Of a DNA stretch of 64,000 bases, positions 7,702-56,229 are shown in pieces. The DNA lies in NCBI RefSeq assembly GCF_003018255.1, contig NZ_CP027440.1, one strand, 5' to 3'. Made by a program: the position numbers and the translations under genes. This DNA comes from Escherichia coli. Its GTDB lineage: Bacteria; Pseudomonadota; Gammaproteobacteria; Enterobacterales; Enterobacteriaceae. The notes beneath the pieces were generated by a model. The model was not told the DNA's origin. It saw only the letters and a list, made by a program, of their open reading frames with translations, and ran no database searches. Numbering within the stretch: position 1 is the first letter of the stretch; each line of letters opens with the position of its first letter.

Positions 7702-7727
7702 AAAAAAGCTCCCGAAGTTGGGAGCTT
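7702..7727 (-). terminator. Rho-independent terminator downstream of purL
   Basis: Hairpin AGCTCCC-GAAGTT-GGGAGCT followed by a U-run on the minus-strand transcript. Confidence 0.6.
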
Positions 7728-47368: not shown

Positions 47369-47452
47369 GCAAAAAATATAAAAACTTTATCGTTCGCTCA
47401 TTTTTCAGGCAAAACATCTTAAACATAGTCTTTTCCGTCTAATTTATAGACA

Positions 47453-47478
47453 AAAACGAGCCCCGAAGGGCTCGTTTT
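47453..47478 (-). terminator. Rho-independent terminator of clpB
   Basis: AAAACGAGCCC-TTCG-GGGCTCGTTTT perfect hairpin 5 bp after the clpB stop. Confidence 0.65.
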
Positions 47479-47482
47479 ATCA

Positions 47483-50056
47483 TTACTGGACGGCGACAAT
47501 CCGGTCTTCATTAACTTCCAGGCGAATAACTTTACCCGGAACCAATTCACCAGACAGTATTTGCTGTGCCAGCGGGTTTTCGATCTGCTGCTGGATAGCA
47601 CGTTTCAGCGGACGTGCACCATAGACCGGATCGTAACCGTTCTCGCTCAGCAGTTTCAGCGCCTCGTCAGAAATGTGGATTTCATAACCACGTTCTTCCA
47701 GACGTTTGTACAGACGTTTCAACTGAATCTGCGCAATCGACGCAATGTGCTGTTCACCCAGCGGATGGAAGACCACCACTTCATCGATACGGTTAATGAA
47801 TTCCGGACGGAAGTTATGGCTTACCACACCGAGCACCAGCTCTTTCATGTGCGCATAATCCAGTTCACCGAAGCGTTCCTGAATCAAATCGGAACCGAGG
47901 TTAGAGGTCATAATGACAACCGTATTACGGAAGTCGACCGTTCTCCCCTGCCCGTCAGTCAGACGCCCATCATCCAGTACCTGCAACAGAATGTTGAAGA
48001 CATCCGGATGCGCTTTTTCCACTTCATCCAGCAGGATGACGGAATACGGACGACGACGCACAGCTTCGGTCAGGTAGCCACCTTCTTCATAACCGACATA
48101 TCCCGGAGGCGCACCAACCAGACGAGACACCGAGTGTTTCTCCATAAACTCGGACATATCGATACGGACCATCGCCTCGTCGCTATCAAACATAAAGTTC
48201 GCTAGCGCCTTACAAAGCTCAGTTTTCCCCACACCGGTTGGGCCGAGGAACAGGAATGAACCAATCGGGCGATTTGGATCCGCCAGCCCCGCACGGCTAC
48301 GACGAATAGCGTTAGATACCGCATCAACCGCTTCGTTCTGACCAATAACGCGATGGTGCAGTTCTTGCTCCATACGCAGCAGTTTTTCGCGCTCGCTTTC
48401 CATCATGCGAGAAACCGGAATCCCCGTCCAACGCGCCAGCACTTCAGCAATTTCGGCATCGGTCACTTTATTACGCAACAGACGCATAGTTTTGCCTTCG
48501 AGCTGCGTTGCGGCTTCCAGTTGCTTTTCCAGTTCCGGGATTTTGCCGTATTGCAGTTCAGACATCCGCGCCAGGTCCCCCACACGGCGAGCCTGTTCAA
48601 TAGCGATTTTCGCCTGTTCCAGTTCCGCTTTAATGGTCTGTGTACCAGAAAGCGATGCTTTCTCTGCTTTCCACTCTTCTTCTAACTCGGAGTACTGACG
48701 TTCTTTGTCGCTCAGTTCTTCGTTGAGCATATCCAGGCGTTTTTTACTGGCTTCATCAGACTCTTTCATTAACGCCTGTTGTTCCAGTTTGAGCTGAATG
48801 ATACGGCGATCGAGTCGGTCGAGTTCTTCTGGTTTTGAGTCAATCTGCATACGAATGCTGGATGCTGCCTCATCGATCAGGTCGATGGCTTTATCTGGCA
48901 GCTGACGGTCAGCAATGTAGCGATGAGACAACGTCGCCGCTGCAACAATTGCCGGGTCAGTAATTTGCACATGGTGGTGCAGTTCGTAACGTTCTTTTAA
49001 GCCACGCAGAATAGCAATGGTGTCTTCAACAGAAGGCTCGGCAACAAACACTTTCTGGAAACGACGCTCCAGCGCAGCATCTTTTTCGATGTACTGGCGA
49101 TATTCGTCAAGCGTCGTGGCACCTACGCAGTGCAATTCACCACGCGCCAGCGCCGGTTTCAGCATGTTTCCGGCGTCCATTGCGCCATCGGCTTTACCCG
49201 CACCGACCATGGTATGTAATTCGTCGATAAACAGGATGACGTTGCCTTCCTGTTTGGCAAGATCGTTAAGCACGCCTTTTAAACGTTCTTCAAACTCACC
49301 GCGATATTTCGCCCCAGCCACCAGCGCGCCCATATCCAGCGCCAGTACGCGGCGGCCTTTCAACCCTTCCGGCACTTCGCCGTTGATAATACGCTGCGCC
49401 AGACCTTCAACGATGGCAGTTTTACCGACACCGGGTTCACCAATCAGTACCGGGTTATTTTTAGTACGACGTTGCAGCACCTGAATGGTACGGCGAATTT
49501 CTTCATCACGACCAATCACCGGATCGAGTTTGCCCTGTTCGGCTCGTTCGGTAAGGTCGATGGTATATTTTTTCAAAGCCTGACGTTGGTCTTCAGCACC
49601 TTGATCGTTCACGCTTTCACCTCCACGCATTTGTTCAATCGCTTGAGTAATGTTGGCGGTGGTCGCCCCTGCTGCTTTCAGGATGTCGGCCAGCGTGCCG
49701 CGAGACTCAAGTGCCGCCAGAACGAACAGTTCTGACGAGATAAAGTTATCACCACGTTTTTGCGCCAGCTTGTCGCAAAGATTAAGAACGCGCACCAGAT
49801 CCTGTGATGGCTGGACATCACCACCAGTACCTTCAACCTGTGGTAAACGATTTAATGCCTGATTGATATCTGTGCGCAACTGGCCAGCATTAATGCCAGC
49901 GGATGTTAATAAAGGACTAACCGAACCCCCTTCCTGATTCAGCAGGGCGCTCATTAAATGAAGTGGTTCGATGAATTGGTTGTCGTGCCCGAGTGCAAGT
50001 GATTGGGCATCGGCAAGAGCAAGCTGGAATTTATTAGTAAGACGATCCAGACGCAT
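47483..50056 (-). CDS. clpB: Disaggregase chaperone ClpB
   Basis: 857-aa product starting [18 protein letters not shown]; two AAA+ modules and coiled-coil M domain. Confidence 0.95.
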
Positions 50057-51894: not shown

Positions 51895-52028
51895 ATATAC
51901 TGCTTCTTCGTTTATCGTTGGGGTTTTACGGCTTTGCCGTTTAATATAGTGTGCTATTGTAGCTGGTCTTAACCGGGAGCAGGAACAGAGAATCTCCCGT
52001 ATTACATTTTGAGGAAAGTCAAAACGTC

Positions 52029-52766
52029 ATGACGCGCATGAAATATCTGGTGGCAGCCGCCACACTAAGCCTGTTTTTGGCGGGTTGCTCGGGGTCAAAG
52101 GAAGAAGTACCTGATAATCCGCCAAATGAAATTTACGCGACTGCACAACAAAAGCTGCAGGACGGTAACTGGAGACAGGCAATAACGCAACTGGAAGCGT
52201 TAGATAATCGCTATCCGTTTGGTCCGTATTCGCAGCAGGTGCAGCTGGATCTCATCTACGCCTACTATAAAAACGCCGATTTGCCGTTAGCACAGGCTGC
52301 CATCGATCGTTTTATTCGCCTTAACCCGACCCATCCGAATATCGATTATGTCATGTACATGCGTGGCCTGACCAATATGGCGCTGGATGACAGTGCGCTG
52401 CAAGGGTTCTTTGGCGTTGACCGTAGCGATCGCGATCCTCAACATGCACGAGCTGCGTTTAGTGACTTTTCCAAACTGGTGCGCGGCTATCCGAACAGTC
52501 AGTACACCACCGATGCCACCAAACGTCTGGTATTCCTGAAAGATCGTCTGGCGAAATATGAATACTCCGTTGCCGAGTACTATACAGAACGTGGTGCATG
52601 GGTTGCCGTCGTTAACCGCGTAGAAGGCATGTTGCGCGACTACCCGGATACCCAGGCTACGCGTGATGCGCTGCCGCTGATGGAAAATGCATACCGTCAG
52701 ATGCAGTTGAATGCGCAAGCTGAAAAAGTAGCGAAAATCATCGCCGCAAACAGCAGCAATACATAA
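52029..52766 (+). CDS. bamD: Outer membrane protein assembly factor BamD
   Basis: 245-aa TPR lipoprotein with lipobox LAGCSG. Confidence 0.95.
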
Positions 52767-52789
52767 CAGAAACCTGAAACACAAAACGG

Positions 52790-52803
52790 CAGCCCTTGAG
52801 CTG
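52790..52803 (+). repeat. Left copy of target-site direct repeat CAGCCCTTGAGCTG flanking IS4
   Basis: Identical 14-mer at 54231-54244 directly abutting the other IS terminus. Confidence 0.7.
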
Positions 52804-54230
52804 TAATGCCGATCAGTTAAGGATCAGTTGACCGATCCAGTGGCTGTGTAAGAATCCGGAAACGCTCACTTGTTTCCGGATTTTTTTATGCACATTGGAC
52901 AGGCTCTTGATCTGGTATCCCGTTACGATTCTCTGCGTAACCCACTGACTTCTCTGGGGGATTACCTCGACCCCGAACTCATCTCTCGTTGCCTTGCCGA
53001 ATCAGGTACTGTAACGCTACGCAAGCGCCGTCTTCCCCTCGAAATGATGGTCTGGTGTATTGTTGGCATGGCGCTTGAGCGTAAAGAACCTCTTCACCAG
53101 ATTGTGAATCGCCTGGACATCATGCTGCCGGGCAATCGCCCCTTCGTTGCCCCCCAGTGCCGTTATTCAGGCCCGCCAGCGCCTGGGAAGTGAGGCTGTC
53201 CGCCGCGTGTTCACGAAAACAGCGCAGCTCTGGCATAACGCCACGCCGCATCCGCACTGGTGCGGCCTGACCCTGCTGGCCATCGATGGTGTGTTCTGGC
53301 GCACACCGGATACACCAGAGAACGATGCAGCCTTCCCCCGCCAGACACATGCCGGGAACCCGGCGCTCTACCCGCAGGTCAAAATGGTCTGCCAGATGGA
53401 ACTGACCAGCCATCTGCTGACGGCTGCAGCCTTCGGCACGATGAAGAACAGCGAAAATGAGCTTGCTGAGCAACTTATAGAACAAACCGGCGATAACACT
53501 CTGACGTTAATGGATAAAGGTTATTACTCACTGGGACTGTTAAATGCCTGGAGCCTGGCGGGAGAACACCGCCACTGGATGATACCTCTCAGAAAGGGAG
53601 CGCAATATGAAGAGATCAGAAAACTGGGTAAAGGCGATCATCTGGTGAAGCTGAAAACCAGCCCGCAGGCACGAAAAAAGTGGCCGGGACTGGGAAATGA
53701 AGTGACAGCCCGCCTGCTGACCGTGACGCGCAAAGGAAAAGTCTGCCATCTGCTGACGTCGATGACGGACGCCATGCGCTTCCCCGGAGGAGAAATGGCG
53801 GATCTGTACAGTCATCGCTGGGAAATCGAACTGGGATACAGGGAGATAAAACAGACGATGCAACTGAGCAGGCTGACGCTGAGAAGTAAAAAGCCGGAGC
53901 TTGTGGAGCAAGAGCTGTGGGGTGTCTTACTGGCTTATAATCTGGTGAGATATCAGATGATTAAAATGGCGGAACATCTGAAAGGTTACTGGCCGAATCA
54001 ACTGAGTTTCTCAGAATCATGCGGAATGGTGATGAGAATGCTGATGACATTGCAGGGCGCTTCACCGGGACGTATACCGGAGCTGATGCGCGATCTTGCA
54101 AGTATGGGACAACTTGTGAAATTACCGACAAGAAGGGAAAGGGCCTTCCCGAGAGTGGTAAAGGAGAGGCCCTGGAAATACCCCACAGCCCCGAAAAAGA
54201 GCCAGTCAGTTGCTTAACTGATCGGCATTA
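52804..54230 (+). mobile_element. IS4-family insertion sequence (IS4-like, 1427 bp) with 18-bp perfect terminal inverted repeats
   Basis: IRL TAATGCCGATCAGTTAAG at 52804-52821 equals the reverse complement of IRR at 54213-54230; single internal DDE transposase gene of about 442 codons; flanking 14-bp direct repeat; size fits IS4 (about 1426 bp). Confidence 0.85.
52888..54217 (+). pseudogene. insG: IS4 transposase, reading frame split by +1 frameshift in a C6 run (53150-53155)
   Basis: ORF 52888..53193 (MHIGQALDLVSRYDSL...) and ORF 53147..54217 overlap in different frames; joined they give about 442 aa with the IS4-family YREIK motif ([13 protein letters not shown]). Confidence 0.75.
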
Positions 54231-54244
54231 CAGCCCTTGAGCTG
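54231..54244 (+). repeat. Right copy of target-site direct repeat CAGCCCTTGAGCTG flanking IS4
   Basis: Identical to 52790-52803. Confidence 0.7.
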
Positions 54245-54423
54245 CCGTTTTTTTATTCTGTTAGTTGTGAAACTGAAGCGATTTAGTCACTATCGATCTC
54301 ATCAAATATGGCTCGCTTTGAGATATTCCTCAAGTAAAAAAACACCTCTTCCTGCGATTTCTCACAAAAAAGATTCGTTGACAAAAAGTGACAAAATTAT
54401 GAGATTTCCATCACACATTTTGA

Positions 54424-54819
<396 letters not shown>

Positions 54820-54842
54820 TCCTTTATATTGAGTGTATCGCC

Positions 54843-54866
54843 AACGCGCCTTCGGGCGCGTTTTTT
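54843..54866 (+). terminator. Rho-independent terminator of raiA
   Basis: CGCGCC-TTCG-GGCGCG hairpin followed by TTTTTT. Confidence 0.6.
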
Positions 54867-54922
54867 GTTGACAGCGTGAAAACAGTACGGGTACTGTACT
54901 AAAGTCACTTAAGGAAACAAAC

Positions 54923-54970
54923 ATGAAACACACACCGTTTTTCTTCGCATTCTTTTTTACCTTCCCCTGA
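54923..54970 (+). CDS. pheL: pheA leader peptide (15 aa, 7 Phe codons)
   Basis: Translates to [15 protein letters not shown]; immediately followed by the attenuator. Confidence 0.8.
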   Translation: [15 protein letters not shown]

Positions 54971-55016
54971 ATGGGAGGCGTTTCGTCGTGTGAAACAGAA
55001 TGCGAAGACGAACAAT

Positions 55017-55046
55017 AAGGCCTCCCAAATCGGGGGGCCTTTTTTA
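55017..55046 (+). terminator. pheA attenuator terminator
   Basis: AAGGCCTCCC-AAAT-CGGGGGGCCTT hairpin followed by a T-run, 20 bp upstream of the pheA ATG. Confidence 0.7.
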
Positions 55047-55068
55047 TTGATAACAAAAAGGCAACACT

Positions 55069-56229
55069 ATGACATCGGAAAACCCGTTACTGGCGCTGCG
55101 AGAGAAAATCAGCGCGCTGGATGAAAAATTATTAGCATTACTGGCAGAGCGACGCGAACTGGCCGTCGAGGTGGGAAAAGCCAAACTGCTCTCGCATCGC
55201 CCGGTACGTGATATTGATCGTGAACGCGATTTGCTGGAAAGATTAATTACGCTCGGTAAAGCGCACCATCTGGACGCCCATTACATTACTCGCCTGTTCC
55301 AGCTCATCATTGAAGATTCCGTATTAACTCAGCAGGCTTTGCTCCAGCAACATCTCAATAAAATTAATCCGCACTCAGCACGCATCGCTTTTCTCGGCCC
55401 CAAAGGTTCTTATTCCCATCTTGCGGCGCGCCAGTATGCTGCCCGTCACTTTGAGCAATTCATTGAAAGTGGCTGCGCCAAATTTGCCGATATTTTTAAT
55501 CAGGTGGAAACCGGCCAGGCCGACTATGCCGTCGTACCGATTGAAAATACCAGCTCCGGTGCCATAAATGACGTTTACGATCTGCTGCAACATACCAGTT
55601 TGTCGATTGTTGGCGAGATGACGTTAACTATCGACCATTGTTTGTTGGTCTCCGGCACTACTGATTTATCCACCATCAATACGGTCTACAGCCATCCGCA
55701 GCCATTCCAGCAATGCAGCAAATTCCTTAATCGTTATCCGCAATGGAAGATTGAATATACCGAAAGTACGTCTGCGGCAATGGAAAAGGTTGCACAGGCA
55801 AAATCACCGCATGTTGCTGCGTTGGGAAGCGAAGCTGGCGGCACTTTGTACGGTTTGCAGGTACTGGAGCGTATTGAAGCGAATCAGCGACAAAACTTCA
55901 CCCGATTTGTGGTGTTGGCACGTAAAGCCATTAACGTGTCTGACCAGGTTCCAGCGAAAACGACGTTGTTAATGGCGACCGGGCAACAAGCTGGTGCGCT
56001 GGTTGAAGCGTTGCTGGTACTGCGCAACCACAATCTGATTATGACCCGTCTGGAGTCACGCCCGATTCACGGTAATCCATGGGAAGAGATGTTTTATCTG
56101 GATATTCAGGCCAATCTTGAATCAGCGGAAATGCAAAAAGCATTGAAAGAGTTAGGGGACATCACCCGTTCGATGAAGGTATTGGGCTGTTACCCAAGTG
56201 AGAACGTAGTGCCTGTTGATCCAACCTGA
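55069..56229 (+). CDS. pheA: Bifunctional chorismate mutase / prephenate dehydratase
   Basis: 386-aa ORF with CM, PDT and ACT domains. Confidence 0.95.

Follow-up and report, generated by a model that had tools for sequence, protein, structure and literature searches.

In a window of 64,000 nt from the Escherichia coli contig NZ_CP027440.1 (assembly GCF_003018255.1), within which all coordinates below are counted, the insertion sequence (IS) IS4 lies between the genes bamD and raiA at 52804-54230 (+ strand). The copy is 1427 bp long and defective, and its transposase gene runs in the same direction as both neighboring genes. The explanation held here with good confidence is that an inactive, frameshifted IS4 occupies a preferred target of the element, a bidirectional terminator-type hairpin after bamD, and that the insertion is near-neutral. 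According to this explanation, the IS4 transposase complex would read two symmetric target arms, composed of an A-run and the base of a GC stem, and the spacing of the two arms would set the length of the duplication (11-14 bp). After the insertion the host terminator would no longer form, and a hairpin with a U-run in the 5' part of IS4 (52850-52887) would stop the bamD transcripts. bamD would gain a slightly longer, hairpin-capped 3' end, the dead transposase would not be driven from outside, and raiA would keep its own unchanged promoter. Together, these three features would make the insertion close to neutral, so that it persists as a lineage marker. The survey below shows the kind of sequence that IS4 seeks, in which an A-run is followed by a GC-rich hairpin and then by a T-run, and landing in a terminator is the element's normal target choice. 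The presence of IS4 in the bamD terminator is ordinary, because the element habitually lands in such hairpins and this spot is occupied in about 7% of complete E. coli genomes.

The coding sequence of the essential gene bamD upstream of the insertion is intact (52029-52766, + strand; an open reading frame (ORF) of 245 aa, annotated as bamD at the identical locus of strain 104), and its stop codon lies at 52764-52766 on the + strand. Measured from the last base of this stop (52766), the distance is 17 nt to the start of the hairpin and 37 nt to the start of the IS. The left remnant of the bamD terminator hairpin, recognized from the sequence at 52783-52803 (+ strand), contains the 5' arm AAAACGGCAGC (52783-52793), the loop CCTTGA (52794-52799), and GCTG (52800-52803). 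The right remnant at 54241-54254 (+ strand) contains the 3' arm GCTGCCG, then T7 at 54248-54254. A target-site duplication of 14 bp, CAGCCCTTGAGCTG, is present as a left copy at 52790-52803 and as an exact direct repeat at 54231-54244. Upon removal in silico of the element and one repeat (52804-54244), the site reads AAAACGGCAGC-CCTTGA-GCTGCCGTTTTTTT, in which an 11-bp stem folds at -19.7 kcal/mol (z = -5.05; 0 of 200 shuffles fold equally well). The empty site of strain TUM14759 (L109), where the repeat is present in a single copy, is exactly this reconstructed sequence, and the duplication is therefore truly 14 bp. An earlier sequence-only reading of this DNA had proposed the same reconstruction, with a CCTTGA loop, an 11-bp stem, and a T-run 17 bp after the bamD stop, and the IS-free strain bears it out. 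It had also placed IS4 in the loop of the bamD terminator hairpin. The identity of the element and the splitting of the hairpin both stand, but the cuts sit in the stem and not in the loop. On either side of the stem the staggered cut lies 4 bp below the loop; one strand is cut directly after AAAACGG and the other before CCGTTTT. The loop is therefore duplicated together with the uppermost 4 bp of each arm, and each junction retains the full loop and a 4-bp mini-stem.

Before the insertion, the bamD site had the sequence features of an intrinsic terminator, namely an 11-bp stem, a 6-nt loop, and T7. In the present arrangement, the left remnant alone forms a 5-bp mini-hairpin that folds no better than shuffled sequences (z = -0.24), and the right remnant with the adjoining IS end forms a 4-bp stem (z = -0.37 to -1.63 against shuffles). 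The only polymorphism seen in the hairpin is a difference of 1 nt in loop length. The hairpin is unchanged even in NZ_CM188076.1 (L003), despite 19 substitutions just upstream. In that genome the substitutions are spread over the equivalent of 52707-52781, that is, the 3' end of bamD and the first 15 nt after the stop. Neither the IS junctions nor the downstream spacer differ from the window, and the pattern resembles a recombination tract that stops at the hairpin. Additionally, the palindromic target extends the inverted repeats of IS4 to a 46-nt inverted repeat with 85% complementarity (52776-52821 and 54213-54258). Such an inverted repeat together with 14-bp direct repeats is an arrangement known to favor precise excision, which would restore the terminator.

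All features expected of IS4 (IS4 family, IS4 subgroup) are present in the element, including inverted repeats, near-identity to known copies, a DDE transposase, and a target duplication, with the exception of the intact transposase frame that autonomy requires. A search with the terminal inverted repeat returned 2 matches in the window, compared to 0.01 expected by chance. The left repeat, TAATGCCGATCAGTTAAGG, lies at 52804-52822 (+ strand) and has a GATC within it; the right repeat at 54212-54230 (- strand) is its reverse complement with one mismatch. Over 1427 aligned columns there are 6 differences from a K-12-type IS4 copy (99.6% identity), and 1427-bp copies identical at 100% are present in other E. 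coli genomes. IS4 occupies roughly 5,500 places in complete E. coli genomes. The identification of the element as IS4 is thus upheld by both its nucleotide identity and its repaired transposase, which matches NF033592 with 304.5 bits (cutoff 115); PF13006 and PF01609 match the K-12-type transposase product. One extra C in the run at 53150-53155 (+ strand), which is C6 here and C5 in intact copies, brings the length from 1426 to 1427 bp. This +1 frameshift breaks the insG-type transposase gene (52888-54217, + strand) into ORFs at 52870-53193 (from the first upstream TTG) and 53147-54217, and deletion of one C in silico restores a protein of 442 aa that departs from the K-12 type at 2 residues. 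At the identical locus of strain 104, the Prokaryotic Genome Annotation Pipeline (PGAP) gives 'IS4-like element IS4 family transposase, frameshifted'. Of the 2555 E. coli records that match, only 76 carry the C6 allele. Since its transposase frame is broken by the extra C, the window copy is, as judged from its reading frame, a non-autonomous IS4 fossil of a kind found in a minority of genomes (76 records). The right inverted repeat of this copy also carries GATC at 54220-54223, where the intact copies compared have GACT (the differing bases are 54222-54223); the change creates a Dam site and brings the right end closer to a mirror image of the left.

The target preference of IS4 was surveyed by a scan of public genomes and metagenomes for the IS4 left end, which provided 62 distinct left junctions. 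Four metagenome copies with no matching duplications (L052, L090, L099, and L102) were left out of the target tables as recombinants or chimeric assemblies. At the 62 sites there is an A-run over -16..-21, with A at -18 in 89%, followed by a C/G-rich stretch over -15..-9, and G is found at -4 in 74% and at -1, the last duplicated base, in 79%. AAA lies within -24..-13 at 51 of 62 sites, compared to 16% for control positions. A palindrome of at least 3 bp at the apex is found at 50% of sites and 10% of controls, and the two features coincide at 29 of 62 sites and 1.6% of controls. Moreover, an ORF of at least 100 codons ends no more than 120 nt upstream at 27 of 60 sites, against 12% of controls; the distances from stop to site are mostly 19-46 nt, and that of bamD is 37 nt. 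An upstream ORF end at about half of the sites is roughly expected if most sites are gene 3' ends and the IS inserts in random orientation. Among the complete target loci, the duplications range over 11-14 bp and the spacing from the A arm to the T arm over N17-N20, and 10 of the 14 distinct loci fold at -11 kcal/mol or below, compared to 7% of random 36-mers. The majority of complete sites are strong hairpins located beside the 3' ends of genes. The bamD site reads AAAA-CGG-[CAGC CCTTGA GCTG]-CCG-TTTT, which is exactly AAAA-N20-TTTT, and its duplication begins in C and ends in G, as is typical of preferred IS4 targets. The duplication range usually quoted for IS4 is 11-13 bp. An AAA-N20-TTT target consensus is said to have been given by Klaer et al. 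in 1981, and Mayaux et al. (Gene, 1984) reportedly described an IS4 insertion in the pheS,T attenuator, from which the AAA-N20-TTT consensus was drawn; the target pattern found here agrees with this consensus. Literature support on IS4 target preference is also found in PMC2266710.

The same figures bear on the possibility, regarded as somewhat unlikely, that target choice is structural, with IS4 capturing an extruded cruciform or hairpin at the apex of a palindrome while the A/T arms merely accompany terminators. Strong hairpins at 10 of 14 complete loci would fit such a capture, as would the centering of the duplication on the hairpin apex and the way in which its length tracks the loop at the bamD site (13 versus 14 bp). 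Across the sites, however, the A-run is steadier than the palindrome (82% versus 50%), a comparison that is not decisive because the palindrome test was strict, and there are good sites with no usable hairpin, such as the K-12 site, yicI, and L119, all of which carry A/T arms. The yicI site reads AAATCGC-CAGACCTGGCTG-CCATTTA and the K-12 site AAACAC-CAGAACCAAGAT-GCCTATTT, with a duplication of 12 bp; for comparison, the site in the adhE terminator reads AAACGG-CCCCTTCTGGGG-CCGTTTTTTT. A fixed offset of 3 nt between the A-run and the cut was considered as a rule and abandoned: it holds at bamD, adhE, and L024, and elsewhere the offset is 2-4 nt, so that only the description 'arm-anchored' has been kept.

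A weight matrix was trained on the 61 sites other than bamD and scored on the 62.6-kb IS-free window. The bamD hairpin was the second-best locus, and the observed register ranked 14th of 250,156. The other top loci in the window were the clpB terminator, a hairpin near 7709, and the pheA attenuator terminator. The best predicted IS4 target, which is unoccupied, is AAAAACGAGCCCCGAAGGGCTCGTTTT at 47449-47485, downstream of the 861-aa clpB ORF (- strand). A Phe leader (Rfam RF01859, 132 bits) lies at 54922-55047. The attenuator terminator of this leader (55017-55041) ranks among the four top predicted targets, a parallel to the IS4 insertion reported in the pheS,T attenuator. An Rfam scan of 51900-55200 returned this leader only, with nothing in the bamD-raiA spacer or in the IS.

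The prevalence of the insertion among 5426 complete E. coli genomes was determined with a query of 2251 bp spanning bamD, the IS, and raiA, for which full coverage was required. IS4 is present at the bamD site in the orientation of the window in 317 genomes, and a query with the IS flipped in silico revealed the inverted orientation in a further 70, including IAI39, CE10, and NCTC86. The site is therefore occupied in 7.1% of complete genomes (387 in both orientations), a count that mirrors clonal sampling and not the number of events. The junction nucleotides are the same in both orientations. In IAI39, both copies of the duplication are 13 bp long, CAGCCTTGAGCTG, and an 83-nt empty-site query with a loop shorter by 1 nt matched at 100% identity in 8 of the 8 records listed, with 1013 records at 99% or more. 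The 13-bp duplication and the existence of a shorter-loop empty allele indicate that IS4 there entered a different, pre-existing allele. From these alleles, the bamD site has been struck at least three times independently in E. coli, because three types can be distinguished: the present orientation, the inverted orientation with a 14-bp duplication, and the inverted orientation with a 13-bp duplication in a shorter-loop lineage. The two lengths also imply that the cuts stay beside AAAACGG and CCGTTTT and that the length of the duplication follows the spacing of the arms. The bamD insertion is a common, recurrent polymorphism, neither unique nor accidental. This kind of event is already known, and the locus is annotated likewise in RefSeq genomes. 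Among the papers searched, none was found that links IS4 with bamD or raiA, that discusses a bamD hot spot, or that deals with where bamD transcripts end.

Two other accounts of this distribution have to be weighed. A single ancestral insertion that spread by homologous recombination and was flipped in place, with no recurrent hot spot, is given hardly any credence. The three + orientation junctions that were inspected are all identical, as such a history would predict, and recombination nearby is suggested by L003, where the substitutions in 52707-52781 adjoin the same junction. Against it stand the occurrence of both orientations and the IAI39-type duplication, whose 13 bp in both copies fit the pre-existing shorter-loop allele. 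A 13-bp duplication could be derived from the 14-bp event only through two identical deletions. Also, the adhE terminator is likewise occupied in both orientations. Positive selection, by which the insertion would be kept through a beneficial change in bamD or raiA expression in some lineages, is considered very unlikely as well. The allele is fairly frequent, at 7.1% of complete genomes, and it persists after the death of the transposase in the 76 frameshift records. However, target preference alone predicts the site, the two orientations in which the IS is found would differ in their regulatory effects, and frequency among clonal database isolates is not evidence of selection.

Regarding the transcription of bamD, the sequence-only reading had claimed that its transcripts no longer terminate and read into the IS. 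The loss of the host hairpin is consistent with the folding of its remnants, which is no better than that of shuffles; the extent of read-through that was envisaged is not, since IS4 carries a strong hairpin and U-run of its own and read-through is for this reason predicted to be short. This hairpin with its T7 run, recognized by inverted repeat and folding at 52850-52887 (+ strand), lies 47-84 nt inside the left end and directly before the transposase ATG at 52888. Its 14-bp arms occupy 52850-52863 and 52872-52885, its T-run 52881-52887, and it folds at -23.3 kcal/mol (z = -6.97). The protective 5' terminators of IS elements have this layout, in which a hairpin and U-run separate the IS end from the beginning of the transposase gene. 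Transcripts entering from bamD are thus predicted to stop about 85 nt into IS4 and not to run through it. This would place the end of bamD transcripts near 52887, at a distance of about 120 nt from the stop codon instead of about 90 nt, and a hairpin would still cap them. A promoter-like sequence, TTGACC-16-AAGAAT with TG ahead of the -10 hexamer, was found by consensus scan at 52828-52855 (+ strand) and is a candidate promoter of the transposase. The transcription start predicted for it falls within the 5' arm of the hairpin or shortly beyond, so the native mRNA would be without the hairpin and incoming transcripts would carry it.

The unchanged bamD-raiA spacer with the raiA promoter region (54245-54477, + strand), identified by its identity to the empty-site strain, is followed by the intact raiA coding sequence (54478-54819, + strand) and, 3' of it, by raiA's own terminator (54843-54862, + strand). 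The entire segment 54245-54819, comprising raiA and its upstream region, is 100% identical to that of the empty-site strain TUM14759, in agreement with the claim, also made from the sequence alone, that the raiA promoter region is intact. Control of raiA involves cAMP-CRP, ppGpp, FNR, and cold shock (PMC8778775), and a sigma-70 promoter has been mapped in the bamD-raiA spacer (PMC3946193). Nothing suggests that the control of raiA would need sites as far upstream as the IS junction. An outward (hybrid) promoter at the right end of IS4 was looked for by consensus scan, and none was found. A trickle of transcription from the transposase gene could reach raiA, a weak leak that is conceivable because the right remnant provides only a weak hairpin before the T-run.

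These results also concern the alternative that the insertion abolishes bamD termination, so that transcripts extend far into the IS or across it, with measurable changes in both the stability of bamD mRNA and the stationary-phase induction of raiA. This alternative is judged to be unlikely. The halves of the host hairpin do lie 1.4 kb apart, with neither remnant folding better than shuffles, and by the rule of a simple terminator scan there is no + strand terminator from the bamD stop to the raiA terminator at 54843. The right remnant, moreover, offers only a 4-bp stem before the T-run, so that weak transcription of the transposase gene could extend to raiA. Opposed to this are the IS4-borne hairpin with its U7, the 233 nt upstream of raiA that are identical to the empty-site genome, the lack of a promoter-like site directed outward at the right IS end, and the occurrence of the allele in 317 genomes isolated from many hosts, a spread that speaks against a strong cost.

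Several points weigh against the explanation preferred here, a near-neutral IS4 at a preferred target whose own hairpin takes over termination. Termination is a prediction both at the original bamD hairpin and at the IS4 5' hairpin, and the latter was not called by the simple terminator scan; according to a reading of the scan rule, this miss is likely due to a stem that extends into the T-run, so that not enough T's follow it. The 70 genomes with the inverted orientation have the strong IS4 hairpin facing away from bamD and the strains are viable, which implies that termination at this position may matter little in either orientation. The arm model is only approximate, because the offset from the A-run to the cut is 2-4 nt and not fixed, and because hairpins are weak or absent at the K-12 site (0.0 kcal/mol), yicI (-5.1 kcal/mol), and L119 (-2.6 kcal/mol), all of which have A/T arms. 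The clonal sampling behind the genome counts belongs among these points as well. As a separate observation, a weaker, inward-facing terminator-like hairpin, GGGAAGGCCCTTTCCC then TTCTTGTC, is located at 54135-54150 on the - strand, about 80 nt from the right end of IS4, and in the 70 inverted-orientation genomes read-through from bamD would meet its equivalent.

A broader idea can be offered only tentatively and is doubted more than believed: IS4 may be a dedicated terminator-swapping element, which reads the geometry of a bidirectional intrinsic terminator (A-run, GC stem base, T-run), makes symmetric cuts about the apex with a stagger adapted to the hairpin (11-14 bp), and replaces the host terminator with its own 5' terminator. 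If this is true, terminator swapping would make an IS4 insertion nearly cost-free.

Comparison with known systems indicates both shared and distinct features. The K-12 IS4 (insG beside nanX/yjhB) has the same left inverted repeat, a 442-aa DDE transposase that the window copy matches after repair, a flanking duplication, and 99.6% nucleotide identity; the window copy differs from it by the +1 C frameshift, the GATC in the right repeat, and a duplication of 14 bp instead of 12 bp. The IS4 of the pheS,T attenuator is likewise reported to be inserted in a terminator hairpin between an A-run and a T-run, but it broke a regulatory attenuator upstream of an operon, whereas at bamD a gene-end terminator was hit and the downstream promoter is intact. 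IS186, with the target GGGG(N6/N7)CCCC (PMC5009759), is another member of the IS4 family that reads palindromic flanks and not the duplicated core, which varies in length, and it inserts in both orientations at one site. Unlike IS4, which reads an A-run and the base of a GC stem, it uses GGGG/CCCC flanks, a shorter core, and no association with terminators. Elements that target repetitive extragenic palindromic (REP) sequences and other palindromes, namely IS1397, IS621, ISPa11, and ISRm22 (PMC1525189), of which ISRm22 belongs to the IS4 family (PMC1525189), share the use of extragenic palindromes as a 'safe' intergenic niche. Their targets form a repeated sequence family, whereas those of IS4 are unrelated single-copy hairpins of common architecture. 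Incoming transcription is blocked in other IS elements by 5' terminators (PMC2965389; bioRxiv 10.1101/2025.07.22.666184), and the IS4 hairpin and U-run at 52850-52887 occupy the corresponding place ahead of the transposase gene; the difference is that in IS4 both the activity of the hairpin and the escape of transcripts from the native promoter are predicted from sequence. Nothing in the bamD-raiA IS4 locus is a new kind of system.

The consequence for this genome is small: bamD and raiA are intact, the IS4 copy is dead, and the annotation is the same in RefSeq genomes. More generally, an IS found 'in a terminator' should be read first as target preference and not as a regulatory event. The target model predicts other hot spots of IS4 at the clpB terminator, the adhE terminator, and the pheA attenuator. 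The bamD-raiA alleles, among which are the unoccupied site, insertions in either orientation, hairpins of two loop lengths, and transposase copies both live and dead, provide a natural series for the study of terminator loss and IS insulation, and they can also serve as a simple lineage marker.

Several further IS4 copies were noted in the course of the survey. The adhE terminator (AAACGGCCCCTTCTGGGGCCGTTTTTTT, in the adhE-tdk spacer) is a second hot spot, with an intact IS4 in L005, a 1145-bp internally deleted and diverged IS4 relic in UTI89-like strains (L006), and flanks in the opposite orientation in the metagenome contigs L099 and L102. Five copies (L051, L052, L090, L099, and L102) are full-length IS4 elements that lack a matching duplication, their left flank belonging to one known target and their right flank to another; they represent either inter-IS4 recombination, that is, rearrangements, or chimeric metagenome assemblies. 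In Kosakonia oryziphila REICA_142 (NZ_FMBC01, L008-L023), at least 16 contigs carry the exact 30-mer of the IS4 left end, within about 350 nt of the contig end except in L016 (about 45 kb). These contigs point to the expansion of an IS4 of the E. coli type in this plant-associated enterobacterium. One of the Kosakonia flanks, L022 (AAAAAAACGGCAGCCATTGGCTG), was considered as an orthologous bamD terminator and rejected, since tblastn with BamD found no bamD there. Most of the Kosakonia flanks show the pattern of an A-run and a GC hairpin. Finally, a 265-bp contig assigned to Methylobacterium mesophilicum NBRC 15688 (NZ_BPQU01000128.1, L025) is identical to the K-12 IS4 left junction, with the same flank as L007, and is probably E. 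coli contamination of the Methylobacterium assembly.

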